Below are positions 5,653 through 26,984 of a stretch of 64,000 nt of DNA, in pieces. How positions within the stretch are numbered: the stretch's first letter is position 1; every line of letters begins with the position of its first letter. The notes beneath the pieces were generated by a model that was given only the letters and a program-made list of their open reading frames with translations, did not search any database and was not told where the DNA came from. The stretch is taken from assembly GCA_041652815.1 (NCBI GenBank), contig JBAZGN010000001.1:509855-573854 (forward strand). Direction: 5' to 3'. Made by a program: the position numbers and the translations under genes. This DNA comes from Candidatus Omnitrophota bacterium. Lineage in GTDB: Bacteria > Omnitrophota > Gorgyraeia > Duberdicusellales > 4484-171.

Positions 5653-6216
5653 AATTATTTATTATAACACAATATTTCTATTGTTAAATGTAGAAATTCT
5701 CAGATTGATCATCTATTTAAAATATGCTAATATTTTATCGTACTTTTTCATTTTTAACCCAGAAAATGCAATTGTATTTTCTGGGTTAAAGGCCGCCTCT
5801 AAACTTTCCTTGAAAAATTTAGATAACGGCGGGGTATACCGAAAAAATGCTCCGTACCAAATGGTACACTGTGGTTTATGCCTAACGAAATGCAGTACCG
5901 GCGGCGAGTGAAACTTTTTGATTACCCAACAAGGTGTTCTGCTGGACCATTAACTGCCTGCCTGACGGCGCGCGGGCATTCTTTCGGTTAATATGGTAAG
6001 AGCGTTCTTATCTGCGTAAAAAAACTACATACGCATATTTTTCCTTATATGGGTAATAGAATCTGGATTTGATGTAGAAATGCTTTACCTTGTCCCAAAA
6101 AAGCTATAAAATAAAAGAAGTACCAATGGTTTGATTAGATTCTCCCACTAGCAGAGGAAGCCCCATACAGAATTCGTATAAGATGTTTCTATGCCTTTTA
6201 TCTATAAAGCAATCAC

Positions 6217-10108: not shown

Positions 10109-11751
10109 AGAAAATTATCATAGTCATATTATTACTTAGTATTTTTTCTGCCTTAGCTATTTCAAGCATGCTTCAACAATCAGGCACCTGCGACGAAATA
10201 GCTCATCATATACCCGCAGGTTATAGCTACTATAAAAAATGGGATTTTAGGCTAAATCCATCCAATCCGCCTCTTTCTCGATATATCATGGCGTTTCCCT
10301 TGGCATTTCTTGATTTAAAAGCGCCATTTGACGATAAAAGTTGGCAGGAAGCAGATACGCCAGCTTTCGGTAGAAAGTTTTTCTTTGAATACAACAAAGA
10401 AAAATCTCGCACTATCCTATTATTAAGCAGGTTGGCCATGGTTTTTGTAGGGATATTTACAGGATTTTTAACTTATCTTATGGCTTCGCAAATCTACGGT
10501 AGAAGAGCCGGGCTGTTTGCTTTATTTTTGTTTTGTTTTACACCGGAGATTATAGCGCATGCTAGCTTAGCCACTACGGATATTACTGCTGCATGCTTTA
10601 TGTTACTTGCTTTATATGCTTTTTGGAAGTTTATGAAGTTGCCTACGAAAACAAAGCTTTTTATGGCAGGGATTACTTTAGGGTTAGCGCAATTATCAAA
10701 ATATAGCGCAGTTATATTTTATCCAATATTTTTAATTTTAGCCTTAACAGAATGGTTGTTATTTAAGAAAAAATTTTCAAAAATATTCAATTCGTTGATT
10801 CTAATTTTTGTAATATCAATTGTCACTATATGGCTAGGTTATGGTTGTAGAATGAAGCCATTCTTAGCAGAAACAACAAAACAGGAAGAAAAGATAGCTT
10901 TTGTACAAAATTTAGGCGTAAAAATTATCCCTTTTTGGAACAATGAGTTATCGCACAAGACCGAAACTTTTTTAAAAGAAAACCCTTTACCGTTAACTAC
11001 CTACATTACAGGTTTCCTGGGCGTGATGAAGCATAATAAAGAAAGCCATCGGATGTTTTTTTTGGGAAAATGGTCGAATCGCGGCAGCTATTTATACTAT
11101 GTAGTAGCTTTCTTAATAAAAACACCGGTTGTTATGATATTTTTTTTATTTATGGCTATTTTTTCTTTACTGTATAAACGGCTCAGCAAAGATGAATTAT
11201 ATCTTATTCTTCCCGCGGCGATTATTTTCTTAGCTGCTTCAATGAGTAAGCTACAATTGGGCACAAGGTATATTTTGCCCATTTACCCGCTATGCATTAT
11301 CTTTTCTTCACGGATTATCCGGCTTATTAAAAATAATGCGCAGAGAACAATTGTAGCCTTATTAGCAATATGGTTAGTTTTGGCAAATATCTTTGCCTGG
11401 CCGCATTATCTTTCGTATTTTAACGAATTTATCGGCGGAGCAAATCATGGCTGGAAGTATCTAAGAGATTCAAATATTGATTGGGGTCAAAACCTTCCGG
11501 CACTTTCAAAATACATGAAGAAGAATGATATAAAAGAAATTACGCTTGAATATTTTGGACAAGACGACCCTGCGTTGTATGGTATAAATTTTGAAGAATT
11601 TAGCTATGCTGAGCGTATAAAGCCTCTCAACAAAATATATGCAATAAGCGCACAATATCTAGAAAATGTTCCTTGGTTTTCTGCCCATGAGCCCACAGCT
11701 AAAGCGGGTTATTCTATATTTATCTATGACTTTAGAAAAGCCGGTAAATAA
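10105..11751 (+). CDS. GT39 family (PMT_2-type) GT-C membrane glycosyltransferase (second paralog)
   Basis: CDEIAHHIPAGYSYYKKWDFRLNPSNPPLSRY motif. ATGA overlap with the upstream YfhO gene. Confidence 0.7.
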   Translation: MKKIIIVILLLSIFSALAISSMLQQSGTCDEIAHHIPAGYSYYKKWDFRLNPSNPPLSRYIMAFPLAFLDLKAPFDDKSWQEADTPAFGRKFFFEYNKEKSRTILLLSRLAMVFVGIFTGFLTYLMASQIYGRRAGLFALFLFCFTPEIIAHASLATTDITAACFMLLALYAFWKFMKLPTKTKLFMAGITLGLAQLSKYSAVIFYPIFLILALTEWLLFKKKFSKIFNSLILIFVISIVTIWLGYGCRMKPFLAETTKQEEKIAFVQNLGVKIIPFWNNELSHKTETFLKENPLPLTTYITGFLGVMKHNKESHRMFFLGKWSNRGSYLYYVVAFLIKTPVVMIFFLFMAIFSLLYKRLSKDELYLILPAAIIFLAASMSKLQLGTRYILPIYPLCIIFSSRIIRLIKNNAQRTIVALLAIWLVLANIFAWPHYLSYFNEFIGGANHGWKYLRDSNIDWGQNLPALSKYMKKNDIKEITLEYFGQDDPALYGINFEEFSYAERIKPLNKIYAISAQYLENVPWFSAHEPTAKAGYSIFIYDFRKAGK

Positions 11752-11815
11752 AAAACGCCTGCCCCTTCTAATAATTTGACTACTAATGACTACTAGTGAT
11801 TATTAAAGAAAAAGT

Positions 11816-11843
11816 TTGACAATTAGTGAAAAATCCTTATAAT
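11816..11843 (+). promoter_or_regulatory. Sigma70-type promoter TTGACA-16-TATAAT for the HTH-neuB operon
   Basis: ttgaca at 11816-11821 and tataat at 11838-11843. AAAGGAGAAA RBS lies 6 nt before the ATG at 11867. A direct repeat TGACTACTA x2 sits just upstream at 11777-11800. Confidence 0.55.
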
Positions 11844-11866
11844 ACCGCGCAAAGGAGAAATAGATA

Positions 11867-12109
11867 ATGGAAATACGTCCAAATGAAGTCTATACTACTG
11901 AGGAAACCCAAAAACTGCTTAAAATAAGCCCTTCTACTACTATGCGTCTTATCAAAAAGGGAATCATTCGTACTGCAAAAATAGGAAAACAATACAGAAT
12001 CATGGGTAAGGAGTTATTACGTATTCTTTCCCCGGAGTTAGAGAATAAAGTCGGCAAGGTCTATAATAAAGGCAGATACTGGCTACATGATGGAATAGAT
12101 GAGAAGTGA
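11867..12109 (+). CDS. Small helix-turn-helix (excisionase/MerR-type) DNA-binding protein
   Basis: 80 aa; YTTEETQKLLKISPSTTMRLIKKGIIRTAKIGKQYRI is a typical excisionase-family HTH. Its 3' end overlaps the neuB start by 11 nt. Confidence 0.6.
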   Translation: MEIRPNEVYTTEETQKLLKISPSTTMRLIKKGIIRTAKIGKQYRIMGKELLRILSPELENKVGKVYNKGRYWLHDGIDEK

Positions 12110-13139
12110 GCGCAAAAAGATAAAAATTAGAGATAGGCTAGTTGGGGAAGGTTATCCCACTCTGGTTATAGCAGAGATAGGTAATAACCATGATGGTAAA
12201 GTTTCTCAAGCCAAAAAATTAATCAAAGATGCCTATGAAGCCGGCTGTGATATTGTTAAATTCCAAACACACATTGCTTACGAAGAAATGATAGATGACG
12301 GAGCCACTCCGCCGCATTTTAAGGAACCGCGTTATAAATTTACGCAGAGGATGCAACTTAGCAAGAAAGATCACATAATTTTAAAAAAATATGCAGAAAA
12401 TTTAGGACTTATATTTCTTTCTTCTCCTTTTTCCGAAAAAGCCGTTGATTTATTAGAAGAGATAGGCGTGAGCGCTTTTAAGATAGCTTCAGGAGAGCTC
12501 ACGAATATACCTTTTCTGCATTATGTTGCCAAGAAGAAAAAAACTATCATTATGTCAACGGGAATGAGCTCGTGGGAAGAAATTGATAGAGCTGTTTCAG
12601 CTATAAGAAAATATAACAACAAGTTAATCTTAATGCAGTGCACTTCGCAATACCCCTGTCCTTACGAAAAAGTGGGGCTTGGTGTCATTTGGGCGCTTAA
12701 AAAGCGCTATGATTGTCCTGTTGGCATTTCCGATCACACACCCACCAATTATACCGCATTTGCGGCAGTAACTTTGGGAGCGTGCATAATTGAGAAGCAT
12801 TTTACTATCGATAAGAGTCTTTACGGGCCGGACCATAAAGCTTCGTTAGTGAAGGAAGAAATGAGAAGCCTTATCGAAGGAGTGCGGGCAATAGAAACAG
12901 CCCTAAAACCATTTGATAAAAATACCTTAAGAAGCCTGGGGGCGGTGCGTGATACCTTTCAGAAAAGTCTGGTGGCAAAGCGCGACATTCCTGCCCATAC
13001 AAAGATTACCAGGACTTTTATTTGCCAGAAGAAACCCGGAACAGGTATTTCGCCTGTTTTGATCGATACTATTGTTGGGAAGGTTAGCCGCGTAAAAATT
13101 AGAAAAAACACCTTACTTCATATTAACCAATTTAAATAA
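12099..13139 (+). CDS. neuB: N-acetylneuraminate (nonulosonic acid) synthase, NeuB family with C-terminal SAF domain
   Basis: LVIAEIGNNHDGK...DIVKFQTH...FKIASGELTNIPFL and a C-terminal antifreeze-like domain. Confidence 0.85.
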   Translation: MRSERKKIKIRDRLVGEGYPTLVIAEIGNNHDGKVSQAKKLIKDAYEAGCDIVKFQTHIAYEEMIDDGATPPHFKEPRYKFTQRMQLSKKDHIILKKYAENLGLIFLSSPFSEKAVDLLEEIGVSAFKIASGELTNIPFLHYVAKKKKTIIMSTGMSSWEEIDRAVSAIRKYNNKLILMQCTSQYPCPYEKVGLGVIWALKKRYDCPVGISDHTPTNYTAFAAVTLGACIIEKHFTIDKSLYGPDHKASLVKEEMRSLIEGVRAIETALKPFDKNTLRSLGAVRDTFQKSLVAKRDIPAHTKITRTFICQKKPGTGISPVLIDTIVGKVSRVKIRKNTLLHINQFK

Positions 13140-13151
13140 AAAGGAATAAAT

Positions 13152-14285
13152 ATGAAACGTAAAATAATGGTAGTTATTATTAACCGTGCAAATTACGCAA
13201 GAATAAAATCTGTCCTCATCGCGATTAAAAATCACAAAGACCTGGAGTTAAGAATAGTAGTTGGAGCTTCAATGCTGCTTCCCAGATTTGGCGAAGCAGT
13301 TAATATTATGTTAAAGGATGGCTTTGTGATAGATGAAGAGATCAGGATAACTCTAGAAGGCGAAAATCCTATAACTATGGCTAAATCTACAGGGATAGGC
13401 TTGCTGGAATTGCCAACGCTTCTTGATAACCATAGGCCGGATGCGGTGATTACTATAGCTGATAGATACGAAACGCTTGCAACGGCAGTAGCAGCTTCCT
13501 ATATGAACATTCCGCTTGTGCACACGCAAGGAGGAGAAACATCCGGCTCTATTGACCATAATGTGCGTAACGCAATAACAAAACTTGCGCACATACATTT
13601 AGTAACTAATGCCAAGTGCGCATCGAGACTAAAAAAAATGGGCGAAAACCCTAAACGAATTTTCATCACCGGATGTCCTTCCATGGACATAGCAAGCAAA
13701 GTAGGGAGTCAGCCCGATAGTTATATCAAAGATTATATTAAAAATCACAACTTTCCTGTAGACACTAATCAACCGTTTTTATTGGTAGTGCAGCATCCTG
13801 TTACTACCGAATATCAAGATGCATCTTTCCAGATAGGCGAGACCATGAAGGCATTGATTAAACTTAAGATGCCAGTTATAGCTTTATATCCTAATGTGGA
13901 CGCCGGTTCTTATCATATGGTTAAAAAAATCCAGCATCTCGGTGTTGAAAAATTGCCGTTATTTTATTTCTACAAAAATTTTCCGCCGGAGGTATTTTTA
14001 GCCCTCCTAAAGAAATGTTCTTGTATCGTAGGTAATTCAAGCGCCGGCATACGTGAAAGCTCTTTCTACGGCACGCCGTCAGTAACTATCGGTTCGCGTC
14101 AGCGTACACGAGACAGGGCGGGCAACGTTACGGAAGTTGGCCACAGCGCAGGAGCTATCCAAAAAGCCATCCAAAAACAATTAGGACATGTCCGTTACAG
14201 CCCAAGCCATCTTTATGGTGATGGCAAGGCAGGTAAAAGAATTGCCGAGATACTTTCTAAATGTTCATTAGATATTGTGAAATAA
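13152..14285 (+). CDS. neuC: UDP-N-acetylglucosamine 2-epimerase (hydrolysing), NeuC
   Basis: VVIINRANYARIKSV...HTQGGETSGSIDHNVRNAITKLAHIHL; epimerase_2 fold. Confidence 0.8.
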   Translation: MKRKIMVVIINRANYARIKSVLIAIKNHKDLELRIVVGASMLLPRFGEAVNIMLKDGFVIDEEIRITLEGENPITMAKSTGIGLLELPTLLDNHRPDAVITIADRYETLATAVAASYMNIPLVHTQGGETSGSIDHNVRNAITKLAHIHLVTNAKCASRLKKMGENPKRIFITGCPSMDIASKVGSQPDSYIKDYIKNHNFPVDTNQPFLLVVQHPVTTEYQDASFQIGETMKALIKLKMPVIALYPNVDAGSYHMVKKIQHLGVEKLPLFYFYKNFPPEVFLALLKKCSCIVGNSSAGIRESSFYGTPSVTIGSRQRTRDRAGNVTEVGHSAGAIQKAIQKQLGHVRYSPSHLYGDGKAGKRIAEILSKCSLDIVK

Positions 14286-14452
14286 ATATGTTTTTAAAAT
14301 TCCCATGCAGGCACTATGAGGATAGCTTAAGGCAAAATTTATACTTCCATAGCGCTAGTCCTGTGCTGGCGCGAATATACGAGTGCCATAGAAGCACACC
14401 CCAGGTAAATACCCTGATTTTCTTAATTCAAAAATGAGTTAAGATATTTATT

Positions 14453-16378
14453 ATGAAGAATATAATTTTTGTAGCAAGATTGAATTCAAAAAATGCACTC
14501 TCTTTTATTAAATCATTAAGCAAGCAAAATTCCGCCAGTGTTATTGTTGCAACCGATCTGGTTTCTATTCAGATCTTATCAAAAGAAAAAATTCCATATA
14601 AACTAATAGAGAATATTATTAATACACAGGAGATGGCTTCTATAACCGAACGCGCCGTAAAATGGGCGCGCTGTTGGCATAAAATTGAGGGCATAGAACA
14701 CCGGATAAAGATTTATGGTGTTAATGTGGGTGAGATTATCGAAATACCTTTTATTCTTAGATTATCGAGATTATTGGAATATACATCCATACTTGATAAA
14801 CTTTGTAATCAATCAGAAGAATGTAAAATATTTATCGTAAATGACAGGTTTTTGGCAGAAATTATCAAAACCATAGTGCACAATATTAATTATGCAACGC
14901 GATTTAAAGTATTTACAAAAGAATATATCAGTCTTAATGATTTATATTCCAGAGCAAAGCAAATATGCAAGAAGACTGCGATTTATATAATATCATATTT
15001 ATGGTGGCTTCGGCACGGACTAAACTTTTATGAAACCAACAAAGAAACATATTCAATTCTGCTTTTTGAGGCTTTAGATCGATTCGGTGATTTTACTTAT
15101 AAATTACGGCAAAGTTTTAACTGTGTTTCTTTGTATCCAAGCTTTTCCTGGTTATATTTTTCGAAATCAAAAAAGACAGGCACCCACTATAGAACGCTAA
15201 GGCCAATATTATTTTGGGAATACTTATGGTTACGCCAAAAAGCAAAAGTTAAATTTCCACACATAAAAGAAATATTAAAAAATAACAATATATTTATTTT
15301 TAATAATACTTCGTTTGCTTCTGCCGTATTCGTTGAGCTTGGGAAATTATTTATTCATCAATTTCCTTGTTGTGCTGCCTACGCAAAAATATTTAAAAGA
15401 AATATTAGCAATTTCAGATTAGTTATAACCACCAACGATACAACTCCGATTGCAAAACTTATAGTCAAAATAGCTAAAGCAAAACGAGTACGCACGTTAG
15501 TTATCCAGCATGGTGTTACAACTGGCGGAGAAGTAGGGAAATTTAATAATAGTTCTTTTTTTGGTTTTGGATTCTTACCGCTTACCGCTGACGTTATGGC
15601 AATAGCCGGGAATATAAGTAAAGATTGGCTGGTTAGTAACGGCGTAATGCCCGATAAATTAAAAGTTACAGGCCTTTTACACTTAGATGAATATTTCAAA
15701 ATGCAGGACGATAAAACCCGGACAAAACAATTGAAGGAAGATATATGTAAAAAATTTAATTTTAGTAATAAAATTCCTTTAATTTTATTCGTATCACAAC
15801 ATTCAGCAGGAAACAATAGGATTAGCGGATATCAGTTAACACCGGGAGAGACCTATAAGAATTTAGTCTGTATTGCCAAAGCGCTCAAGATTTACAATAA
15901 GAAAGCCAATCTTTTAGTAAAACTGCATCCTGTATTGCAAGAAGATGAATCGCTTTATCGCGATATATTAATTTCAGATGGTGCAGAAAATGCTAAGGTA
16001 ACAAGGAAGTATCGGGTATCGAGTCTCGTCTTAGCCGCAGATTTAGTTATAACTTGCTGGTCTACAGTTGGAATGGATGCCATTTTTGCTAATAAGCCAT
16101 TAATAACCCTAAATCTTAGCGGCACTTTCGATAAAATGCCATACGCAGAAAAAGGAGCAGCGATTGGCGTTGCTTCTGAAACCGAACTGAGCGTCGCAAT
16201 TTCTAATTGTCTCAGCGGCAGTAGCACTTTTTATAAACTGGCGCAAGGAAGAGGTAAATTTAGCGAAGATTATAATACAATAGGATCAAAAACGGCAGCT
16301 GAAAATATCTTAGATTTAATTTATGAACTCCTGAATCCAAAGACATGTCAAACATTAAATTTGATCAATACAAAATAA
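14453..16378 (+). CDS. Hypothetical 641-aa protein; candidate CMP-ulosonic-acid-dependent glycosyltransferase (sialyltransferase / KpsS-KpsC-like 'HP-motif' family)
   Basis: Sits between neuC and neuA. The C-terminal half (VIQHGVTTGG...LLVKLHPVLQEDE...VITCWSTVGMDA) resembles the HP-motif CMP-sugar binding region of bacterial sialyl/Kdo transferases. The N-terminal half has no family I can name. Confidence 0.35.
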   Translation: MKNIIFVARLNSKNALSFIKSLSKQNSASVIVATDLVSIQILSKEKIPYKLIENIINTQEMASITERAVKWARCWHKIEGIEHRIKIYGVNVGEIIEIPFILRLSRLLEYTSILDKLCNQSEECKIFIVNDRFLAEIIKTIVHNINYATRFKVFTKEYISLNDLYSRAKQICKKTAIYIISYLWWLRHGLNFYETNKETYSILLFEALDRFGDFTYKLRQSFNCVSLYPSFSWLYFSKSKKTGTHYRTLRPILFWEYLWLRQKAKVKFPHIKEILKNNNIFIFNNTSFASAVFVELGKLFIHQFPCCAAYAKIFKRNISNFRLVITTNDTTPIAKLIVKIAKAKRVRTLVIQHGVTTGGEVGKFNNSSFFGFGFLPLTADVMAIAGNISKDWLVSNGVMPDKLKVTGLLHLDEYFKMQDDKTRTKQLKEDICKKFNFSNKIPLILFVSQHSAGNNRISGYQLTPGETYKNLVCIAKALKIYNKKANLLVKLHPVLQEDESLYRDILISDGAENAKVTRKYRVSSLVLAADLVITCWSTVGMDAIFANKPLITLNLSGTFDKMPYAEKGAAIGVASETELSVAISNCLSGSSTFYKLAQGRGKFSEDYNTIGSKTAAENILDLIYELLNPKTCQTLNLINTK

Positions 16379-17070
16379 TTGGAGTCATACCGGCCAGGGG
16401 CGGTTCGAAAGGGATAAGGCACAAGAATATAGTCCCATTATATGGGAAACCCTTAATCGAATACACCATAGAGCAAGCATTAAAATCAAAGTTTCTTGAT
16501 AGAATTATAGTTTCTACTGATAGTAAACGCATAGCAGAGGTTGCTAAGAAATTTTGTAAATTCGGTGTAGAAATATTTAAAAGACCAAAGTGTTTATCTC
16601 AGGATAGTACGCTTACCGTTGATGTGCTTAGATATCTGCTTAAGAATATCAAAAATAAAAATAATTATATGCCGGACATTGTTGTAACGCTTCAGCCCAC
16701 CTCACCCTTTAGAAAATTCTCAACCATTGATAGAGCTATTATCAAATTAATTGAAGGTAAATACGATTCAATAATAACAATATGTAAAGCCGAACGCACT
16801 CCTTATAAGATGTATATTCTTAAGAAGGGTTTAATCAAGCCTCTTTTATGTGCTGGTAAATATATAGAAAAACCAAGGCAAATTATACCGAATGTTTTTC
16901 GTTCCACAGGAACGGTTTATGTCACAAAATCGAGCCTCATATTAAAACAAAAAAGAATTATTGGCAGAAAGTGTTCTTATATATTCGTTGACAGGCCGGA
17001 ATCTTTTGATTTAGATGACAAATTTGATCTTAAAGTTGCCCGCTGTATTAAAAAAATAAATAGAATATGA
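16345..17070 (+). CDS. neuA: CMP-N-acetylneuraminic acid synthetase (acylneuraminate cytidylyltransferase)
   Basis: IIGVIPARGGSKGIRHKNI...PLI..TIE and QPTSPFR motifs. Confidence 0.85.
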   Translation: MSNIKFDQYKIIGVIPARGGSKGIRHKNIVPLYGKPLIEYTIEQALKSKFLDRIIVSTDSKRIAEVAKKFCKFGVEIFKRPKCLSQDSTLTVDVLRYLLKNIKNKNNYMPDIVVTLQPTSPFRKFSTIDRAIIKLIEGKYDSIITICKAERTPYKMYILKKGLIKPLLCAGKYIEKPRQIIPNVFRSTGTVYVTKSSLILKQKRIIGRKCSYIFVDRPESFDLDDKFDLKVARCIKKINRI

Positions 17071-18476
17071 AAATATTATTAACACGCCCGGCAGTAGAAA
17101 CAAGGCCTGGTTTCAGGTTCCCGTTAGGCTTAGGGTATATTGCGGCAGTTCTCGTAAAAGCAGGCCACGAAGTAGATATTCTTGATTTAGATATGTTACG
17201 CCTAAGTAAAGATCAGGCAGAGGATGAAATTAAAAATTATAAATACGATATTTTTGGCCTTAGCAGTCTAACGGCTCAATATCGAGACATGAAATGGATG
17301 ATTTCTATTTCAAAGAAATGGCATCCGGAAGCTCTTGTCGTAATCGGCGGCGCCGGGCCTTCATCTATGCCGGAATTTATGATAACACATACTAAAGCTG
17401 ACATTGTTGTCCTGCGAGAGGGGGAAGAAACAATAATTGGTTTACTGACTGCCTTAGAAGAAAAAAAATCCTTAGATAACGTAAAAGGTATTTTATATAA
17501 AAAAGAAGATGGCAGCTTTGCGGTGACTTCCGTCCGAGAAAGAATCTCTAATTTAGATATAATACCTTTTCCTGAATGGAACTTATTTGATATGAAAGAA
17601 TATTCTTCTCAAATTTCCTTCGCTTCCCGTAGAGGAGCAAAATCAATGGTGATGATTACTTCGCGCGGTTGCCCTTTTAACTGCGCTTTTTGCTTTAGAG
17701 ACTTTGGCAGAAGAACAATCTTTCGTTCGGCAAGAAATGTTGTTGATGAAATAAAAAAATTAAAAGATAAATACGACATAGAGTATATTTCATTTCTTGA
17801 TGAACTTTTTACCGCATCTGGCGAGAGAGTAAAAGAAATCTGCGATCGATTGATAGATGAGCGTATTAAAATTAAGTGGGATTGTAGAAGCAGGGTGGAT
17901 TCGGTAGAAGAAGGCATTTTGAAAAAAATGAAAGCAGCAGGATGTGTATATATGAGTTATGGTATTGAATCTGCAAGCGATAAGATTTTAAAAAACATGG
18001 ATAAGGGTATAAAAATAGATGAAATAAGAAAAGCTATTACAATTTCTCGAAAAGTCGGCATAAAAATTTCCGGAAGTTTCATGATTGGAATGACAGGCGA
18101 GACCGAAGAGACATTCCAGGCTACGGTAAACTTTATAAAAGAAATGAATATGCATAAAAACTACGGGTTTTTTTACACTACTCCTTTCCCCGGGACCAAA
18201 TTATTTGAAGAGGCTATCGCAAAAAAACTTATACCTGATATTGAGCAATATATAATGGATTTGGGTGAAACTCATTTTAAACCATTTATAAATTTATCTA
18301 ATTTGCCATTCGAGCGCTTAAGTGTTTTGAAAACAGAAGCCGATAAAGAAATAGAGAAAGATTATAAAAATAAAAATCCTTTTTGGCCATGGGTTTATTT
18401 AACTGAACGTTACCGGCTCTATGGTTTCCTGGGGTTATTTAAAAAAGTATTTAAAAAGATACGCAAAACATCCTGA
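17067..18476 (+). CDS. Cobalamin-binding radical SAM enzyme (class B; likely methyltransferase or other sugar modifier)
   Basis: N-terminal B12-binding domain followed by CPFNCAFC (CxxxCxxC). ATGA overlap with neuA. Confidence 0.8.
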   Translation: MKILLTRPAVETRPGFRFPLGLGYIAAVLVKAGHEVDILDLDMLRLSKDQAEDEIKNYKYDIFGLSSLTAQYRDMKWMISISKKWHPEALVVIGGAGPSSMPEFMITHTKADIVVLREGEETIIGLLTALEEKKSLDNVKGILYKKEDGSFAVTSVRERISNLDIIPFPEWNLFDMKEYSSQISFASRRGAKSMVMITSRGCPFNCAFCFRDFGRRTIFRSARNVVDEIKKLKDKYDIEYISFLDELFTASGERVKEICDRLIDERIKIKWDCRSRVDSVEEGILKKMKAAGCVYMSYGIESASDKILKNMDKGIKIDEIRKAITISRKVGIKISGSFMIGMTGETEETFQATVNFIKEMNMHKNYGFFYTTPFPGTKLFEEAIAKKLIPDIEQYIMDLGETHFKPFINLSNLPFERLSVLKTEADKEIEKDYKNKNPFWPWVYLTERYRLYGFLGLFKKVFKKIRKTS

Positions 18477-18477
18477 A

Positions 18478-19662
18478 ATGGAAAAATCAAAACTATATAT
18501 TGTTGTGGCAATCGATACAGAAGGCCCGGCATCTTATGCTTTAGATAGTTGGGATAAGATAGATAAAATGATGAAACGCATTACATCCGATGATTTTAGA
18601 TATGCACACACTGACAGTTACAGCGAAGGTTTACGATATAGTTATTTTGTAATGGACTGGACAGCTTTTAGCGAAAATCCAAATAAACGCGTATTTGGTT
18701 ATAGCGCCATATACGAGCATTATTTAAGAGATTTATTCGCTGAAACCCCACTAAAAAAACATAAAGATGGCGTGTATTGGCACTATCACCATCCTTGCAA
18801 AGACGGTAAATGGCGTTATGGTGGTTGGAATGAGACCTGGGGTGATAATAATGAATACGAAAACCAAATAAACCATCTTATTATAGATAGACAATATTTT
18901 CCTAATATTTATAGGGCGGGAGGAACTATTGAGACTAACGAACAGTCGCAATGGCTTGAAGAATGGATTCCTTTTGATTTTTCTTCGCGAGGGCCGGAAA
19001 GCATATCCTTAAAATCAATTTTAAAAAAACTTAAAAATAACATATGCGGTAATAGCACGAAATATTTGTGGGATTGGTCAAGAGCGCCCAGGGATTGGAT
19101 TTTTTATACGCCTTCCGCTGAAGATTATCAATTAAAAGGCACAATGGCAAGAAAGATTTTTCGCTGTGCAGGGATTAAGAGCGATGAGGATTGTGTAAAT
19201 AGCAAGTATATCAAAGAAGCTTTTCTGTTTGCTTCTAAAAGAAAAGAGGCTTTATTTTCATTCTTTACGCACGATTTCTACGTGAACGCCGATCAGCAAA
19301 TATACAATACTGCCAAACTCATAAAAAGTATAGCTAAAGATTTCGACACGGTTGAATACGCTTATTTAAATGCTTTGGACGCGGCACAAAAATGTCTTTG
19401 TTGCGAAGACAAGGGTTCTTTAGGGCTAACGGTGTCACTCGATAGCAAAATACTTATAGTAAAGTCAAACAAAAAGCTTTTTTCGAAACAACCGTGGCTT
19501 TCGGCTAAATTCATTGATTTAACTTATAAACACATTTTAATGCAGCAAAAAGAAGAAACACTCTGGACCGTTGATTTGCCCTTGGATAAAATAGAAATTT
19601 TAGGTGTAGGCGCTTGCGATAAGGTTGGTAATTCTACCGTGACTTTAACGAGGATTTTATAA
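18478..19662 (+). CDS. Hypothetical protein in the NulO cassette (possible hydrolase/deacetylase-like, no confident family)
   Basis: ATG at 18478 lies directly after the upstream TGA; the track's 18421 start would overlap by 56 nt. Features include IVVAIDTEG and WHYHHPCKDGKW. Confidence 0.4.
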   Translation: MEKSKLYIVVAIDTEGPASYALDSWDKIDKMMKRITSDDFRYAHTDSYSEGLRYSYFVMDWTAFSENPNKRVFGYSAIYEHYLRDLFAETPLKKHKDGVYWHYHHPCKDGKWRYGGWNETWGDNNEYENQINHLIIDRQYFPNIYRAGGTIETNEQSQWLEEWIPFDFSSRGPESISLKSILKKLKNNICGNSTKYLWDWSRAPRDWIFYTPSAEDYQLKGTMARKIFRCAGIKSDEDCVNSKYIKEAFLFASKRKEALFSFFTHDFYVNADQQIYNTAKLIKSIAKDFDTVEYAYLNALDAAQKCLCCEDKGSLGLTVSLDSKILIVKSNKKLFSKQPWLSAKFIDLTYKHILMQQKEETLWTVDLPLDKIEILGVGACDKVGNSTVTLTRIL

Positions 19663-19663
19663 A

Positions 19664-21217
19664 ATGAATTTAGAGAAAACCAACAATGGAGCAAAGTGCA
19701 TAAGGGTATCAATGATAGACGATGTAACAGGATCAAAAGACGAGATTGTGCGAGATACCGTAAGTTATACGGGCAGTTCTTATGTCGGCAATATCCTGGA
19801 TGCAGTAACAAGTATAGCCATAAGAAGATTCCTGGGTCCTTTCTTGAGCGGCATCTGGGGGGTTGTGCAGATAGTGTTGAGCTATTCTTCATTTATCCAT
19901 TGCGGTATACTTTTTGGAGCTGAAAAAGAAATTCCCTACAATAGAGGAAAAGGTGAATATAAACAGGCTTCCCGTATTGCCGACGTTACGTTTAGCTTTA
20001 TTTTAGTAATTTCTCTTACCGCAGCGATATTACTTTCTCTTTGGGTATTATTTTTTGGCGGGGAATATTCACCATATGTGAAAATTGGCTTATATGCGGC
20101 TGCAATAATAACTTTATTACAACAATTATATAATTTTTATCTAACAGTTTTAAGGGCTCATAAAAAATTTACAATTATTGGCAAAACGCTATTGTTGGCT
20201 TCTTTTTTTAATTTGATATTTGTTTTTACTTTAACCAAAACGTTGCGTTTGTATGGGCTTTATATCTCAACTATTCTGACTTTATGTATTTCAACTTTTT
20301 ATTTTTTCAAGAAGTTCAATACTTATCCGAAGTTTTTTATTTCCTTAAAAGATCTTATAAATATATTCAAGATAGGATTTCCTATACTCATAATTAATCT
20401 TTCTATGACATTTTTTAGGAGCGTCGATAGGATTATTATTGCAAAAAAATTGAGTTTAGAGGATCTTGGATATTATGGTTTAGGGGTAATATTAATGAAA
20501 TATATATTATTTTTACCTACAATATTCAGCAGTGTGATATTTCCGCGATTCCAGGAGAAATATGCAAAAGCGCATAATCACAAAGATTTAAAGAATTATA
20601 TATTGACACCCACAATGATTCTTGCGTATTTAATGCCGGTTTTTATTCTTGTTACCTATTTTATAACCCCCATTCTTATTCATTTTGTATTGCCTGATTT
20701 TCGTAATTCTATGGTAGTAATTAGGTTGATTCTATTAGGTTCATTTTTTATTTCCTTATATTACCCTGCAAGTTTTTACTTTATTACCGTAAATAAAACA
20801 AAACATATAGTGCCCTTTGCGGTGGGCAGCTCCTTGTTGCTTTTATTTTTTGGAACAATGGTTGTAAACTTCAGCTGGGGAATGGAGGGAGTGGCTTTTA
20901 TCACAAGTTTATGCTATATGATTTTTACCTTTTCGCTATTGTTGCATGCCTTGAATCATATTCAATCAATAGGCGATAATCTGAAAGTTATTGGAGAAAT
21001 ATTTTCTGTATTTCTGTATTTTCTTGGAATAGCTTTTTTTATTGATAGGATAAATTTTTCCAGCAGCATATTTCTATTGGCATTTATAAAGATCATGACA
21101 ATGTTATTTTTTTCCCTGCCACTTTTGTTAATCATAAATAAAAAAACAGGTATTTTAGTATTGTTTTGGAATTTAGTGAAATCTTTCCAATCGCGCGGTA
21201 TTAAAAACAAAAAATAA
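19664..21217 (+). CDS. Wzx-type oligosaccharide flippase (MOP superfamily polysaccharide biosynthesis protein)
   Basis: 517 aa, about 12-14 transmembrane helices, and the typical N-terminal region of PF01943/PF13440 proteins. Confidence 0.65.
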   Translation: MNLEKTNNGAKCIRVSMIDDVTGSKDEIVRDTVSYTGSSYVGNILDAVTSIAIRRFLGPFLSGIWGVVQIVLSYSSFIHCGILFGAEKEIPYNRGKGEYKQASRIADVTFSFILVISLTAAILLSLWVLFFGGEYSPYVKIGLYAAAIITLLQQLYNFYLTVLRAHKKFTIIGKTLLLASFFNLIFVFTLTKTLRLYGLYISTILTLCISTFYFFKKFNTYPKFFISLKDLINIFKIGFPILIINLSMTFFRSVDRIIIAKKLSLEDLGYYGLGVILMKYILFLPTIFSSVIFPRFQEKYAKAHNHKDLKNYILTPTMILAYLMPVFILVTYFITPILIHFVLPDFRNSMVVIRLILLGSFFISLYYPASFYFITVNKTKHIVPFAVGSSLLLLFFGTMVVNFSWGMEGVAFITSLCYMIFTFSLLLHALNHIQSIGDNLKVIGEIFSVFLYFLGIAFFIDRINFSSSIFLLAFIKIMTMLFFSLPLLLIINKKTGILVLFWNLVKSFQSRGIKNKK

Positions 21218-21232
21218 TTACAGGAAAAATAA

Positions 21233-21910
21233 ATGGTAGATTTATTCAAAAAAAAGATAGAATATTATAATTCCGGAAGAAGAGAATTCTTTTCAATTTT
21301 TCCTTGGCATGCAAAACACGTATTAGATGTGGGGTGTGGAACAGGCGCGTTTGGAAAGAGTTTGAAGGAAGGGGGCATTGAGGAGGTAATTGGCATAGAG
21401 AAGAACACAGAAGCGGCAGAAATTGCCAAGAAAAATATAGATAAAGTTATAATCGCAGACATAGAATCTTTCCCTTTGGAATTAAACAAAAATTACTTTG
21501 ATGTGATTATCCTAGCCGACGTGCTTGAGCATTTACAAGATCCATGGATAATTTTAAATAAAATTAAGCCCTTGCTCAAGGATGACGGTTTTTTATTTAT
21601 CAGTATACCTAATGTCAGGTATTATCGCGTTTGGTTAAGTTTAGTTGTAAAAGGAGAATTCAAGTATGCCGATAGCGGTATTCTTGATATAGGCCATCTT
21701 AGATTTTTTACATTTAGAACAATAAAACAATATTTAAAAAATGCTAATTTTAAGATAATAAAGATTAAAAGAAACTTTTCTGGGCACATAAGTTGGTTTT
21801 TTAATGCGATACTGGCTAATATATTTGCGGATTTTTTTACAAGACAATATATATTCTTAGCCAGGCAAGAAAGAAATGATGAGATTAATAATTTCAAGAA
21901 AATATCATAA
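21233..21910 (+). CDS. Class I SAM-dependent methyltransferase
   Basis: VLDVGCGTGAFG motif I and DVIILADVLEHLQDP motif. Confidence 0.75.
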   Translation: MVDLFKKKIEYYNSGRREFFSIFPWHAKHVLDVGCGTGAFGKSLKEGGIEEVIGIEKNTEAAEIAKKNIDKVIIADIESFPLELNKNYFDVIILADVLEHLQDPWIILNKIKPLLKDDGFLFISIPNVRYYRVWLSLVVKGEFKYADSGILDIGHLRFFTFRTIKQYLKNANFKIIKIKRNFSGHISWFFNAILANIFADFFTRQYIFLARQERNDEINNFKKIS

Positions 21911-21939
21911 AGAATGTTTGTCTAGAATTACAATCTAAA

Positions 21940-22848
21940 ATGCTAAATTTTGAGATTTTCGTATTGAATTATAACGGTAAAGATTTATTAGCGGAGTGTT
22001 TGCCGACCATTATTGAAGCTTGCAAAAAAAGCAGGTATAATGGCCGCGTTACCGTAATAGATAATCAAAGCAAGGATGCAAGCGTTGAGTTCCTAAGAGA
22101 AAGTTTTCCTCAAGTTATAATACATATTGCACGAGAAAATAAAGTGCTTTGTTCGTTTAATGAAGCGGTAGAACAATCAGAAGCCGAGTTTGCAATTTTT
22201 CTTAATAACGATATAAAAGTAGAAGTTGATTTTGTTGATCCGTTATTGGAGCATTTTCATGATAACAATGTTTTTTTTATCGCGCCTTGTGTACTCAATT
22301 TCGATGGCACATTTAACGGAGGTAAATCTTATATAAAAATGAAATACGGTTTTATCAAGGTGGAAGTGGACAGAGAAATCCCTGATTTAGAGGGCATAAC
22401 ACAAAGTATTGCTTGCGGAGCATTTCGCAAAAGTATATTCTTGCAATTGGGGGGATACGATTCTCTTTATCTACCTGGTTACTGGGAAGATACGGATCTT
22501 TGCTATAGAGGGCTTAAAATGGGTTATAAAGGTATCTATGAACCGAAAAGCCGTATTTACCATAAAGAGAGCACAACTTTTGCTAAAAGCTTTTCTCAAT
22601 ATAAAAGAAAAGTTTTAGTGGATAGAAATATGTTTCTTTTTACCTGGAAAAATATATCCAGCTTTTCTATTCTGGCGCAACATCTGTTATTTTTATTACC
22701 AAGACTTTTGCATGCGCTTGTAAGCGCACAATTTCATACCATCGCTGGTTTTATTCAAGCTTTTGCAAAACTGCCAATTGTTTTTAAAAAACGTAAATGT
22801 ATTTCTGTAAAATATGGGGTGCCGGATACAGAAATAGTAAAGATATAA
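21940..22848 (+). CDS. GT2 family glycosyltransferase
   Basis: FVLNYNGKDLL...VIDNQSKD...GGYDSLYLPGYWEDTDLCYRG. Confidence 0.7.
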   Translation: MLNFEIFVLNYNGKDLLAECLPTIIEACKKSRYNGRVTVIDNQSKDASVEFLRESFPQVIIHIARENKVLCSFNEAVEQSEAEFAIFLNNDIKVEVDFVDPLLEHFHDNNVFFIAPCVLNFDGTFNGGKSYIKMKYGFIKVEVDREIPDLEGITQSIACGAFRKSIFLQLGGYDSLYLPGYWEDTDLCYRGLKMGYKGIYEPKSRIYHKESTTFAKSFSQYKRKVLVDRNMFLFTWKNISSFSILAQHLLFLLPRLLHALVSAQFHTIAGFIQAFAKLPIVFKKRKCISVKYGVPDTEIVKI

Positions 22849-22860
22849 AAAGGAGAGATT

Positions 22861-23811
22861 ATGAAACTTATTATCCAAATTCCTTGCTATAACGAAGAGG
22901 AAGCGCTCACGGTAACCATAAAATCTTTACCTCTTGAGATAACCGGGATAGATAAGGTAGAAATTTTGGTGATTAACGACGGCAGTACCGATAATACCGT
23001 TCAAGTGGCTAAGGCCCTGGGGGTAAAACATATACTGGATCTCCCGTATCACAGGGGGCTTGCGGAGGGTTTCAGGAGAGGAATAGAAAAATCTTTAGAA
23101 TTAGGAGCGGATATTATAGTGAATACAGACGCAGATAATCAATATAAAGGAGAAGATATACCAAGATTAATTAAGGGAATTATTGATAAAAAAGGAGAAA
23201 TCATAATAGGCTGTCGGGACATCTCCGCAGTAAAACATTTTTCTTGGGGCAAAAAAATACTACAAAAACTTGGCAGTTTCGTTGTGAGAAAGTTTTCTAA
23301 AACCGATATACCGGACACCACATCTGGATTTCGTGCATACAGCCGTGAAGCAGCCTTAAGGCTTAATGTGTTTTCGACCTACACCTATACCATAGAAACC
23401 ATAATTCAGGCAGGCCGGCTAGGTATTCCCATAAGTTACATTCTTATTTCCACTAACGAAAAGCTGAGAGATTCTCGATTAATAAAAAATATCCCTTCCT
23501 ACATTAAAAAGTCAGTCTCTACCATATTGCGTATTTACTTAATGTATGAGCCATTTAAAAGTTTTTTTAATCTCGGGCTAATTCCAATAATTTTTAGTTT
23601 GCTGCTTATCGTAAGATTCTTAGTTGCGCATTTCACCAAACCCCAAGGGGGGCATATCCAGTCTTTAATTGTTGCCGCCATCGCATTTATCATAGGTACA
23701 ATAATTATCATGATAGGTTTATTAGGGGATATTATTTCTGTTAATAGAAAAATCAACGAGGAGATACTTTATCGATTAAGAAAACGGGAATTTGGTAATA
23801 ATAACCTTTGA
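22861..23811 (+). CDS. GT2 polyprenol-phosphate sugar synthase with C-terminal TM helices (GtrB/ArnC-like)
   Basis: QIPCYNEEEAL...INDGSTDNT...TDADNQY and two C-terminal transmembrane helices. AAAGGAGAG RBS. Confidence 0.75.
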   Translation: MKLIIQIPCYNEEEALTVTIKSLPLEITGIDKVEILVINDGSTDNTVQVAKALGVKHILDLPYHRGLAEGFRRGIEKSLELGADIIVNTDADNQYKGEDIPRLIKGIIDKKGEIIIGCRDISAVKHFSWGKKILQKLGSFVVRKFSKTDIPDTTSGFRAYSREAALRLNVFSTYTYTIETIIQAGRLGIPISYILISTNEKLRDSRLIKNIPSYIKKSVSTILRIYLMYEPFKSFFNLGLIPIIFSLLLIVRFLVAHFTKPQGGHIQSLIVAAIAFIIGTIIIMIGLLGDIISVNRKINEEILYRLRKREFGNNNL

Positions 23812-23819
23812 AAGAATTT

Positions 23820-26601: not shown

Positions 26602-26915
26602 AAAAAATAATATTATTCTTAATTTGGATTATCGGTTCGGCGGGATTAGTATATTATCTTTATTCGCATGCAAGCGACTTAAAAAGACTTCTTGCCATCT
26701 CAATACAAGATGTAATACTGCTTATTATGCTTTTAATTATTATGCAGTATTTTAATGGGCCACTACTAAAATTTATATTAGAAAAGGTCGATACGCCTCT
26801 TACTCCGGAAGAATATTTTTATTTCACCAGCATGAACACCGCGGCTAATTATTTACCATTACGAGGCGAAGCTGCGGCAACCGCGGGCGCGTTTTGCTGG
26901 ATTAAATATTTTTAA
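26598..26915 (+). CDS. Small hypothetical membrane protein (GTG start; possibly a fragment of a flippase-like/UPF0104 protein)
   Basis: Two to three transmembrane helices; GTG overlaps the upstream TGA. Confidence 0.3.
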   Translation: MKKIILFLIWIIGSAGLVYYLYSHASDLKRLLAISIQDVILLIMLLIIMQYFNGPLLKFILEKVDTPLTPEEYFYFTSMNTAANYLPLRGEAAATAGAFCWIKYF

Positions 26916-26984
26916 GCATTAAGAATTACTATTTAATATATAAAGAGGAAATGGAAGGGCCAAAAGTGTAGCTGGTAAAAATAT

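Follow-up and report, generated by a model that had tools for sequence, protein, structure and literature searches.

The 64-kb window, the whole stretch of DNA analyzed here, comes from an uncultured Candidatus Omnitrophica bacterium (MAG) and carries a conserved operon for the synthesis of an activated sialic-acid-type sugar, which is probably modified by a cobalamin-binding radical SAM enzyme (B12-rSAM) and a 395-residue protein (U395). On balance, we read the operon as a CMP-Neu5Ac pathway joined to de-N-acetylation, methylation, radical C-methylation, a dedicated transferase, and control by an HTH protein. Within the literature searched, the B12-rSAM and U395 would be new as tailoring enzymes of sialic-acid-type pathways.

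Organization and Conservation of the Operon

The genes listed in the original prediction for 11816–21910, whose interpretation is supported in part, were all recovered by an ORF check on a single strand (Table 1). Position 11816 is the first base of the promoter, which is the only perfect match within 11500–27500 and is followed by AAAGGAG and then the ATG of the HTH gene. The end at 21910 is arbitrary, as the same-strand glycan locus runs on to about 45.7 kb; it also encodes at least ten more glycosyltransferases and a wecB-type epimerase. The predicted overlap of the HTH stop codon with the start of neuB was borne out, the HTH reading frame ending 11 nt inside neuB. The 641-residue reading frame overlaps neuA by 34 nt, and an overlap of these two genes is kept in the related contigs L001, L088, and L089.

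These three metagenomic contigs hold the whole cassette in the same order: HTH, NeuB, NeuC, (Wzx), a transferase of ∼620 residues, NeuA, B12-rSAM, and U395. The Wzx gene occurs in every homologous cassette, in differing positions. A fourth contig keeps the core without the HTH gene, and the core is found in L003 and L005. Protein identities between cassettes are just 26%–53%, which argues that the gene order is under selection and does not reflect recent common descent. The GT2 gene shares 41% identity with the downstream GT2 genes of L001 and L089.

Table 1. Positions of the operon features within the window
Feature	Position	Strand	Basis or remark
Three tandem 10-nt direct repeats, TGACTACTAA TGACTACTAG TGATTATTA	11777..11805	+	Candidate HTH operator
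Sigma-70-type promoter, TTGACA-16 nt-TATAAT	11816..11843	+	12/12 match
HTH_17/excisionase-type DNA-binding protein, 80 aa	11867..12109	+	PF12728 47.5 bits; first gene of the operon
NeuB-type nonulosonic acid synthase	12099..13139	+	PF03102 270 bits and SAF domain
NeuC-type hydrolyzing UDP-GlcNAc 2-epimerase	13152..14285	+	TIGR03568 355.4, over cutoff 235.9
GT-B transferase, 641 aa, KLHP motif	14453..16378	+	PF04464 25.8 bits, residues 481–624
NeuA-type CMP-nonulosonate synthetase (CTP_transf_3)	16345..17070	+	PF02348 100 bits
Class B (cobalamin-binding) radical SAM enzyme	17067..18476	+	PF02310 78 bits, PF04055 96 bits
U395, 395 aa (founder of its family)	18475..19662	+	CE4/GH57-type (β/α)7 barrel and C-terminal β-sandwich
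Wzx-type flippase	19664..21217	+	PF01943 and PF13440 matches
Class I SAM methyltransferase	21233..21910	+	PF13489 77.6 bits
GT2 glycosyltransferase	21940..22848	+	PF00535; conserved with the cassette

U395 and the Radical SAM Enzyme

No other component of the operon is as novel or as widespread as U395, a weight that had been missed earlier. Its reading frame encodes 413 residues from the first ATG and 395 from the ATG that overlaps the rSAM stop codon, and the family has no Pfam entry. Structure prediction, proposed earlier as a check on this protein, gave a confident model of a deacetylase-hydrolase barrel of the CE4/GH57 type, and structure comparison places the fold close to CE4, ArnD, and NDST. 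Invariant Asp, Glu, and His residues cap successive barrel strands at their C-terminal ends. U395 is predicted to be a metal-dependent de-N-acylase. ArnD (a deformylase), the N-deacetylase domain of NDST1, and HP0310/PgdA are amidohydrolases of the CE4 superfamily that expose an amine for redecoration. U395 differs from these enzymes in lacking detectable sequence similarity, even by profile, in the spacing of the metal ligands (motifs D-x-E and H-x-H, compared with D-D and H-x-x-x-H in CE4), in its extra C-terminal β-sandwich, and in its association with NeuB and NeuA. Its fold class also holds glycosidases (GH57 and GH38) and other amidohydrolases.

Among 84 fetched U395 loci, 80 of which came from a genome scan for the U395 family, NeuB lies within 10 kb of U395 in 62 and NeuA in 51. 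Class I methyltransferases are the commonest immediate neighbors (19 of 132), formyl-, sulfo-, and acyltransferases account for seven, six, and five, respectively, and one protein (P0047) is a U395-methyltransferase fusion. For Kuenenia, an independent preprint connected nonulosonic acids with a free amine to the deacetylase and formyltransferase of a Leg-type cluster. Since many U395 loci have no NeuC or belong to the Leg type, and 15 have a PtmE-like nucleotidyltransferase adjacent, U395 may act on a hexosamine precursor instead of the nine-carbon sugar.

The B12-rSAM, predicted to be a C-methyltransferase acting on the nonulosonate, has an intact CxxxCxxC motif (CPFNCAFC, residues 202–209). 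It shares a radical SAM core with this motif and an N-terminal B12-binding domain with the class B C-methyltransferases Fom3, GenK, and TokK, and its gene, like that of Fom3, lies directly 3′ of a cytidylyltransferase gene. Fom3 methylates CMP-linked hydroxyethylphosphonate and follows the cytidylyltransferase that makes this substrate. The rSAM reaches no NCBIfam equivalog cutoff; its best matches there, BchE (198, cutoff 481) and HpnJ, are not methylases, and its closest solved structures score just 57–84 bits and include non-methylases such as AprD4 and OxsB. Orthologs with 51%–53% identity adjoin NeuA and the U395 gene in L001, L003, L088, and L089, a 42% homolog is found in a Pse/Leg-like cluster (L090), and the tie to nonulosonic acid genes extends down to 32% identity. 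In a magnetotactic Rhodospirillaceae genome, a pair of B12-rSAM genes is flanked on both sides by CTP_transf_3 genes, with a U395 homolog and NeuB next to them. Mass spectrometry has revealed C10 CMP-ulosonic acids in Magnetospirillum gryphiswaldense that lack an assigned gene, and our literature search found no description of a class B rSAM for nonulosonic acids.

It is conceivable that the cassette yields plain CMP-Neu5Ac and that the rSAM, U395, and the class I methyltransferase, a candidate enzyme for N- or O-methylation of the sugar, are merely co-located with it and tailor other glycan residues or a lipid or protein acceptor. The further glycosyltransferases and the wecB-type epimerase indicate that other sugars are on offer as substrates, methyltransferases are frequent across loci of this kind, as in L001 and L004, and the tailoring genes after Wzx vary, L003 and L088 having sulfation genes in place of the methyltransferase. 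Such an arrangement is nevertheless unlikely. In five diverged cassettes, the rSAM and U395 genes lie next to NeuA, their reading frames overlapping or abutting, U395 accompanies NeuB and NeuA in many phyla regardless of what else the locus contains, and more distant rSAM homologs again adjoin NeuB or CTP_transf_3. The modified sialic-acid-like sugar proposed earlier is supported as far as tailoring is concerned, the rSAM-U395 pair recurring in nonulosonic acid clusters; its C- or O-methylation is a prediction. For both enzymes, we infer the tailoring chemistry as a whole, including substrate, regiochemistry, and even type of reaction.

The Core Pathway

The assignment of neuB, neuC, and neuA holds. 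The solved structure nearest to NeuB is that of Neisseria meningitidis NeuB (211 bits; PseI, 153), that nearest to NeuC is the epimerase domain of human GNE (232 bits; LegG, 172), and that nearest to NeuA is the N. meningitidis CMP-Neu5Ac synthetase (99 bits). Leg/Pse upstream enzymes were sought across the 64 kb, a dedicated glycan locus, and no 4,6-dehydratase (PglF/LegB type), aminotransferase (DegT type), or N-acetyltransferase (PglD type) was found. Together, the Neu-type structures and this absence point to a Neu rather than a Leg/Pse pathway, and NeuB is most likely a Neu5Ac synthase. Homology shows that NeuC converts UDP-GlcNAc to ManNAc by hydrolysis and epimerization, that NeuB condenses ManNAc with PEP to yield Neu5Ac, and that NeuA activates this to CMP-Neu5Ac.

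The same three enzyme families are encoded in a single operon in N. meningitidis and Escherichia coli K1. In contrast to those pathways, NeuB in the window stays under the Neu5Ac synthase equivalog cutoff (TIGR03569, 353.5 against 399.65; PseI model, 256). Neither TIGR03569 nor TIGR03568 separates Neu from Leg enzymes. The operon also lacks a GT38, GT52, GT80, or GT42 sialyltransferase, and its B12-rSAM, CE4-like protein, and HTH gene are not part of classical Neu clusters. NeuA has only 241 residues, without the C-terminal esterase domain that the E. coli K1 enzyme carries.

The low NeuB score would also fit a pathway to a 5,7-diamino nonulosonate, of the legionaminic or another type, for which the genome would hold the dehydratase, aminotransferase, and acetyltransferase genes at another place and in which U395 and the rSAM would serve that chemistry. 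Many U395 loci, L031 of B. fragilis and L004 among them, are clearly Leg-type, LegG and GNE match the NeuC of the sister cassette L001 equally well (175 and 174 bits), and an epimerase/dehydratase and a hexapeptide transferase are encoded downstream in L001 and L089. The clear preference of the window NeuC for GNE, the meningococcal Neu5Ac enzymes as nearest relatives of NeuB and NeuA, and the lack of the upstream enzymes in the 64 kb make this pathway quite improbable.

The 641-Residue Transferase

The 641-residue protein is predicted to be a CMP-nonulosonate transferase. In agreement with the HP-motif transferase proposed at the outset, profile search identifies it as GT-B: the C-terminal ∼320 residues make up a GT-B core that has a single HP motif (LLVKLHPVLQ, residues 487–496). 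This core is distant kin of the Tannerella family of Pse/Leg transferases as well as of TagF and KpsC. The family profile matches the structures 9wde (3e-11), the TagF-like Cps3D (8qoy, 4.7e-10), and KpsC (6mgb, 7e-6), and UDP-GlcNAc 2-epimerases are also among its GT-B matches. Single-sequence structure prediction gave no usable 3D model (pLDDT 32). The protein belongs to a large uncharacterized family of 2319 cluster representatives, in which D329, Q352-H353-G354, T406-G407, D412, K490-x-H492-P493, S537-T538, and E/D542 are conserved; the D/E-D/E-G motif of bacterial sialyltransferases and the DXD motif are absent from the protein. Its N-terminal half, previously regarded as unassignable, is no idiosyncrasy of this protein, being conserved across the family.

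A close parallel is offered by the Tannerella forsythia Pse/Leg-derivative transferases Tanf_01245/TFUB4_00887 (BFO_1060 family, NF046086; PMC5420450), likewise TagB-like GT-B proteins with an HP motif, encoded within a nonulosonic acid cluster. The 641-residue protein is ∼200 residues longer, with an extra conserved stretch at the N terminus that is in part a duplicate of the N-subdomain, and scores 34 against the NF046086 cutoff of 200; its score for TIGR04396 (45) is also below cutoff. Since the genetically validated Tannerella enzyme already places a Pse/Leg transferase in the TagB/TagF-like GT-B group (PMC5420450), the protein is better described as an uncharacterized branch of that group than as a wholly new sialyltransferase family. 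The genomic context of at least one family member is not a nonulosonic one.

TagF/TagB and the KpsC β-Kdo transferases resemble it in the C-terminal nucleotide-binding domain of the GT-B fold and in having a cytidine nucleotide as donor. The NCBI name would make it a TagF-like CDP-glycerol/CDP-ribitol phosphotransferase that adds polyol phosphate, the nonulosonate being moved by another enzyme of the locus. PF04464 is indeed its sole Pfam match over the gathering score, Cps3D is the second-best structure match, L095 has its family member in a CDP-alcohol-type setting, next to Fe-ADH, NTP_transferase, and CDP-OH_P_transf genes and with no NeuB, and L001 and L089 include a CDP-alcohol phosphatidyltransferase gene. 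However, the protein aligns to just the last ∼140 positions of PF04464, and the context provides CMP-nonulosonate, the one CMP- or CDP-activated donor for which the window has genes, instead of CDP-polyol or CMP-Kdo; no TagD-, TarI-, or TarJ-type gene for CDP-glycerol or CDP-ribitol synthesis is present there. All 63 aligned family members match the Tannerella Pse/Leg transferase model and TIGR04396, compared with five to seven for TarB/TarF. In four cassettes, translation of the gene is coupled to that of neuA, and six of seven informative contexts are nonulosonic acid clusters (L001, L088, L089, L090, L091/L092, and L093). A polyol phosphate transferase is thus very doubtful.

A Proposed Route from Sugar to Surface Glycan

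The operon would stand at the head of a long Wzx/Wzy-type locus for a surface glycan, under one strong promoter, as a self-contained module in which a sialic-acid-type sugar is made, tailored, and transferred. The 5-N-acetyl or another acyl group may be taken off the sugar or its precursor by U395, acting as a cytoplasmic CE4-like metalloenzyme. The freed amine could then be redecorated, here by the class I methyltransferase and in other genomes by the formyl-, sulfo-, or acyltransferases in its place. In a Fom3-like manner, the B12-rSAM might methylate an unactivated carbon of the CMP-linked sugar, extending the backbone if the terminal carbon were modified. The 641-residue enzyme would bind the CMP donor through K490-x-H492-P493 and S537-T538 and transfer the modified sugar to a lipid-linked oligosaccharide, which Wzx would flip across the membrane.

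The HTH Protein and the Upstream Repeats

The HTH protein passes TIGR01764 (31.9, cutoff 28.8) and misses the MamR model (42, cutoff 100). It is 78%–82% identical to the first or second gene product of L001, L088, and L089, and this identity of ∼80% between cassettes contrasts with merely 26%–53% for their enzymes. The direct repeats (period 10, 2.3 copies by TRF) lie upstream of the promoter, and a fourth, related copy at 11817–11829 overlaps the −35 hexamer. The HTH protein may bind these phased TGACTAYYA repeats, from about −70 to the −35 hexamer, and so control its own operon. As TTGAC is present inside them, the repeats could be reiterated −35-like elements instead of an operator. The dedicated regulator proposed earlier gains support from synteny, the very high conservation of the protein, and the conserved repeat. 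The pattern is unique in the window, with two overlapping matches against 0.03 expected; the same motif occurs upstream of L088, L089, and L001, and the conserved repeat is confined to the promoters of these cassettes.

Gene Content and Conservation of the Cassette

An ORF call combined with Pfam and NCBIfam scans recovered every gene named in the original prediction, all on the plus strand (see table). Protein matches at 100% assign the window to a Candidatus Omnitrophica MAG. The cassette stands at the front of a glycan locus, encoded on one strand, that reaches ∼45.7 kb and includes, 3′ of the cassette, GT2, GT4, and GT9 enzymes, a wecB-type epimerase, an initiating Bac_transf protein, and a Wzy_C protein. 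The HTH stop codon lies 11 nt inside neuB, and the flippase assignment of Wzx is supported by 45.1 bits against a gathering score of 28.2. The novelty of the locus is the family of the 395-aa protein, here termed U395, together with a nonulosonate-linked class B (cobalamin-binding) radical SAM enzyme (B12-rSAM); both had been flagged earlier but left unresolved. A cobalamin riboswitch or another structured RNA within the operon was considered and rejected, with no Rfam match and no tRNA in the window.

Genes of the cassette
Product	Position	Strand	Assignment or motif
80-aa HTH_17 protein	11867-12109	+	PF12728
NeuB	12099-13139	+	PF03102 + SAF
NeuC	13152-14285	+	TIGR03568, 355.4 bits (equivalog cutoff 235.9)
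641-aa transferase	14453-16378	+	LLVKLHPVLQ, residues 487-496
NeuA-like cytidylyltransferase	16345-17070	+	PF02348
B12-binding radical SAM enzyme	17067-18476	+	CxxxCxxC as CPFNCAFC, residues 202-209
U395, 395 aa from the ATG overlapping the rSAM stop	18475-19662	+	
Wzx	19664-21217	+	PF01943
Class-I methyltransferase	21233-21910	+	PF13489

The order HTH_17, NeuB, NeuC, (Wzx), ∼620-aa transferase, CTP_transf_3, B12-rSAM, and ∼390-aa protein is also found in three homologous loci from other contigs (L001, L088, and L089), and a fourth contig (L003) retains NeuA, NeuB, NeuC, rSAM, U395, and Wzx. Identities to the window proteins are 29%–53% for the enzymes and 26%–28% for Wzx. Protein identities as low as these indicate that the host organisms are diverged, and the gene order kept among them is taken to reflect selection. 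The genes 3′ of Wzx differ: the window, L001, and L089 encode methyltransferases there, and L003 and L088 encode sulfation proteins. In the latter two (L003 12708-16328 and L088 14093-15250), a sulfotransferase, a sulfatase, an APS kinase, and an ATP sulfurylase replace the post-Wzx methyltransferase, which suggests that the glycans of these organisms are sulfated instead of methylated.

Four GT-C-like membrane proteins are encoded directly upstream of the cassette (970-11751), two of them YfhO-like (826 and 729 aa) and two PMT_2-like (571 and 548 aa). A YfhO/PMT pair also lies 5′ of the cassette in L001, and PMT-type genes lie 5′ of it in L088 and L089. These upstream genes suggest a glycosylation of protein or polymer at the periplasmic face that is coupled to the locus. 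Two ORFs in or beside the glycan locus, 26985-28523 (512 aa) and 456-980 (174 aa), have no Pfam match.

Identity of the Nonulosonic Acid

The original prediction regarded NeuB, NeuC, and NeuA as a canonical CMP-Neu5Ac trio, to be abandoned if they proved to belong to a legionaminic (Leg) or pseudaminic (Pse) acid pathway. The comparison with solved structures is consistent with the Neu-type assignment. For NeuC, which passes its equivalog cutoff, the nearest structure is that of the human GNE epimerase domain (232 bits, versus 172 bits for LegG of the legionaminic pathway). NeuB, with domains PF03102 (270 bits) and a C-terminal SAF domain, PF08666 (24 bits), is closest to Neisseria meningitidis NeuB (211 bits, versus 153 bits for PseI); it scores 353.5 bits against TIGR03569 (NeuB_NnaB), below the equivalog cutoff of 399.65, and 256 bits against the PseI model. 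NeuA matches CTP_transf_3 with 100.2 bits (gathering score 22.6) and the PseF equivalog with 135.6 bits, under the cutoff of 205.7, and its best solved structure is the meningococcal CMP-Neu5Ac synthetase. A scan of the window ORFs of ≥150 aa up to position 54098 found no Leg/Pse-type 4,6-dehydratase, DegT aminotransferase, or PglD-type N-acetyltransferase. Because the nearest structures are of Neu type and Leg/Pse genes are absent from the scanned ORFs, CMP-Neu5Ac is favored as the product of the three enzymes, with the sub-cutoff score of NeuB as a caveat.

The window NeuC shares just 29%–31% identity with its counterparts in the sister cassettes (L001, L003, L088, and L089), compared with 39%–53% for NeuA, rSAM, and U395. 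It is GNE-like, and the L001 protein is equidistant from GNE and LegG. Replacement of the gene, or use of another substrate by the sister cassettes, may account for this pattern.

The U395 Family

U395 has no match in Pfam or NCBIfam at E ≤ 0.01, including the CE4/NodB model PF01522, and neither the 395-aa sequence nor the family profile retrieves anything from the sequences in the PDB. The AlphaFold model, a check proposed in the original prediction, was built from an alignment of 60 homologues; it has a pLDDT of 94.6 and places the protein in a predicted (β/α)7 deacetylase-type barrel. Residues D14, E16, R42, H103, H105, D168, and H266 are invariant in the alignment. In the model, D14, E16, H103, H105, D168, and H266 are located at the C-terminal ends of successive strands. 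They are candidates for an Asp-His-His metal triad and catalytic Asp/His residues, although their spacing along the chain is unlike that of CE4. No signal peptide is present, and the enzyme is thus predicted to be cytoplasmic.

A genome scan found 176 relatives of U395 in species-representative genomes from many phyla, with hosts that include CPR bacteria, a Woesearchaeote, Pelagibacteraceae, Bacteroides fragilis, and cultured Cohnella and Pseudodesulfovibrio. Within 10 kb of the U395 gene, NeuB is encoded at 62 of 84 loci, NeuA at 51, and NeuC at 28. Detailed scans identified Leg-type clusters at the U395 loci of B. fragilis and a Microgenomates genome, and the Truepera locus has a polysialyltransferase-like context. 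A census of the 132 immediate neighbors at 66 loci gave class-I methyltransferases (19), PtmE-like nucleotidyltransferases (15), NeuB and CTP_transf_3 (8 each), formyltransferases (7), sulfotransferases and B12-rSAM (6 each), and hexapeptide acyltransferases (5). One homologue, P0047 (648 aa), is a natural fusion in which residues 11-372 form the U395 domain and residues ∼417-600 a class-I SAM methyltransferase. This pattern of neighbors and the methyltransferase fusion fit an amidohydrolase that would free an amine for re-decoration, by analogy with NDST in heparan sulfate and with ArnD. In Kuenenia, a deacetylase and a formyltransferase in a Leg-type cluster have been linked independently to free-amine nonulosonic acids (2026 preprint).

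The methyltransferase part of P0047 is weakly similar to the window methyltransferase at 21233-21910. The Leg-type cluster of the B. fragilis MAG (L031, 3184-14048) comprises PtmE-like, PglD-like, NeuB, NeuC-like, two GFO_IDH, and CTP_transf_3 genes and is followed on its 3′ side by genes for a 450-aa U395 homologue, a TylF-type O-methyltransferase, and a SPASM radical SAM protein.

The B12-Binding Radical SAM Enzyme

The radical SAM enzyme has a class B architecture, with an N-terminal B12-binding domain (PF02310, 77.9 bits) and a radical SAM domain (PF04055, 95.7 bits). It reaches no NCBIfam equivalog, the best models (BchE, HpnJ, and PhpK) all being far under cutoff, and the best solved structures score only 57–84 bits. 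Four orthologues with 51%–53% identity all lie in homologous cassettes. More distant homologues are also found among nonulosonate genes: one with 42% identity lies between NeuB/methyltransferase and Wzx in a Pse/Leg-like cluster (L090), and one with 32% identity is flanked by NeuA and NeuB in a genome of Paceibacterota. A metagenome scan with the protein yielded three poor loci. Literature searches, which covered one paper library, found no relevant paper that connects radical SAM enzymes with nonulosonic, legionaminic, or pseudaminic acids, and none on Omnitrophota and sialic acid.

In the magnetotactic Rhodospirillaceae bacterium LM-1, one region (L038, 4061-15521) encodes, in this order, CTP_transf_3, MptE/Maf-like, two B12-radical SAM, a second CTP_transf_3, U395-homologous, sulfotransferase, and NeuB proteins. 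CMP-activated ulosonic acids with a C10 backbone were detected by mass spectrometry in Magnetospirillum gryphiswaldense, a relative of this host, and no gene was named (SugarBase preprint). Such C10 acids would be accounted for if a class B enzyme C-methylated the terminal carbon. The B12-rSAM is a concrete candidate for the enzyme behind these unexplained sugars, and if it acts on the terminal carbon, its product would be a C10 ulosonic acid like those of Magnetospirillum.

We infer all of the tailoring chemistry from fold, context, and fusion. It is possible, if rather unlikely, that the locus combines two tailoring activities for sialic-acid-type sugars that lack a described precedent, a B12-rSAM that C-methylates the CMP-sugar and a CE4-like de-N-acetylase family, under the control of a mini-HTH protein with a repeat operator. 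If this were true, the route to N-methyl, N-formyl, N-sulfo, and further N-acyl nonulosonic acids would in general lead through the U395 family. Nonulosonic acids cap bacterial surfaces, and they govern charge, the adsorption of phages, and recognition by the immune system. They vary widely in N-acyl groups and backbone, and for most variants no responsible enzyme is known. U395 represents an unannotated, deacetylase-like family with a confident structural model; its genes are tightly linked to those of nonulosonate synthases in many phyla, abundant bacteria of the sea and the gut among them, and the locus offers one of few glimpses into the surface-glycan chemistry of uncultured Omnitrophota.

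The Predicted 641-Residue Transferase

A word-indexed homology search with the 641-aa protein returned only two relatives and gave the impression of an orphan. An exhaustive search overturned this: 2319 cluster representatives match at E < 1e-3, with 646 remaining at E < 1e-10. The family members are mostly 600–670 aa long and several align end to end, so the N-terminal half, previously described as unassignable, is a family-wide trait. The single sequence has no significant match in the PDB, and a profile of 63 members (A2) matches GT-B structures over residues ∼320–620, among them a processive diacylglycerol glucosyltransferase (3e-11), the TagF-like polymerase Cps3D (4.7e-10), UDP-GlcNAc 2-epimerases, and KpsC. 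The GT-B fold is predicted from these profile matches, the AF2 model from the sequence alone being too poor to use (pLDDT 32).

Conserved residues include D329, Q352-H353-G354, T406-G407, D412, K490-x-H492-P493, S537-T538, and E/D542. The bacterial GT-B sialyltransferases of GT38, GT52, and GT80 are characterized by HP and D/E-D/E-G motifs (Freiberger et al., 2007, as cited in PMC5420450). The 641-aa protein shares the former, in a single copy at residues 492-493 (H in 55, P in 52, and K490 in 60 of 63 aligned sequences), but not the latter: [DE][DE]G occurs nowhere in its sequence, nor is such a motif conserved among the aligned family members. A Pse/Leg transferase of Tannerella forsythia, on which the NCBIfam model NF046086 (BFO_1060 family) is based, has been validated genetically (PMC5420450). 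The window protein matches this model with 34.3 bits over residues 379-606 (cutoff 200). All 63 family members match NF046086 (best E-value 3.3e-35) and 62 match TIGR04396, always under the cutoff, which points to remote relatives of the BFO_1060 family and not to members. The original interpretation of the cassette is largely upheld. Its proposal that this protein may be a new sialyltransferase family is not borne out: the profiles support a GT-B enzyme with an HP motif, as a new branch of a known kind.

Six of seven informative genomic contexts of the family are nonulosonic acid clusters, and one is of CDP-alcohol type. The TagF-like model PF04464 is matched with 25.8 bits (gathering score 22.1), only profile positions 225-366 of 367 being aligned, and no CDP-polyol donor genes of the TagD, TarI, or TarJ type were found among the window ORFs scanned. 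In L095 (379-9964), a 630-aa member is accompanied by Fe-ADH, NTP_transferase, CDP-OH_P_transf, aminotransferase, B12-radical SAM, and MbnB/TglH-like genes, with no NeuB visible in that interval; the family may have uses beyond nonulosonate donors. Few nonulosonate transferases are known to us. This ∼620-aa GT-B family, with >2000 sequence clusters, provides candidates.

Proteins of ∼450 aa that match the catalytic core alone are common in other nonulosonic acid loci. Within the 641-aa family, residues 103-160 are similar to residues 303-354 (hhalign probability 94%), which suggests that the extra N-terminal region may be a degenerate duplicate of the GT-B N-subdomain.

The HTH Protein and Its Putative Operator

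The HTH protein matches PF12728 with 47.5 bits (cutoff 27) and the excisionase-type model TIGR01764 with 31.9 bits (cutoff 28.8); MamR (NF040990) scores 42 bits, below its equivalog cutoff of 100. A role as a mobile-element excisionase is rejected because synteny and translational coupling with neuB are retained across diverged genomes; moreover, no integrase or recombinase occurs among the scanned ORFs and no tRNA in the window. Its identity is 78%–82% in L001, L088, and L089 and 51% in a further locus, L005, far above that of the adjoining enzymes.

A TTGACA-16-TATAAT promoter, the sole 12/12 match within 11.5–27.5 kb, begins at position 11816, where the cassette had been predicted to start. 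Tandem 10-nt repeats, TGACTACTAA TGACTACTAG TGATTATTA, lie 5′ of this promoter at 11777-11805, and a related copy overlaps the −35 hexamer (repeat region 11777-11829). The repeats, with the consensus TGACTAYYA, are phased with this hexamer and are unique in the window, where 0.03 matches are expected. Such an arrangement could alternatively represent reiterated −35-like hexamers instead of an operator. The motif also occurs 5′ of the sister cassettes, at 4945-4963 in L088, 3480-3498 in L089, and 5078-5097 in L001. With repeats kept upstream of four cassettes and the strong conservation of the protein, the best reading is that of a dedicated regulator, as originally proposed, that would bind phased repeat sites; the TGACTAYYA repeats are its candidate operator. 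In L001, the operon begins one gene earlier, with the same repeat motif upstream, and L005 has a different tandem repeat, TTGACACCTC TTGACACCTG.
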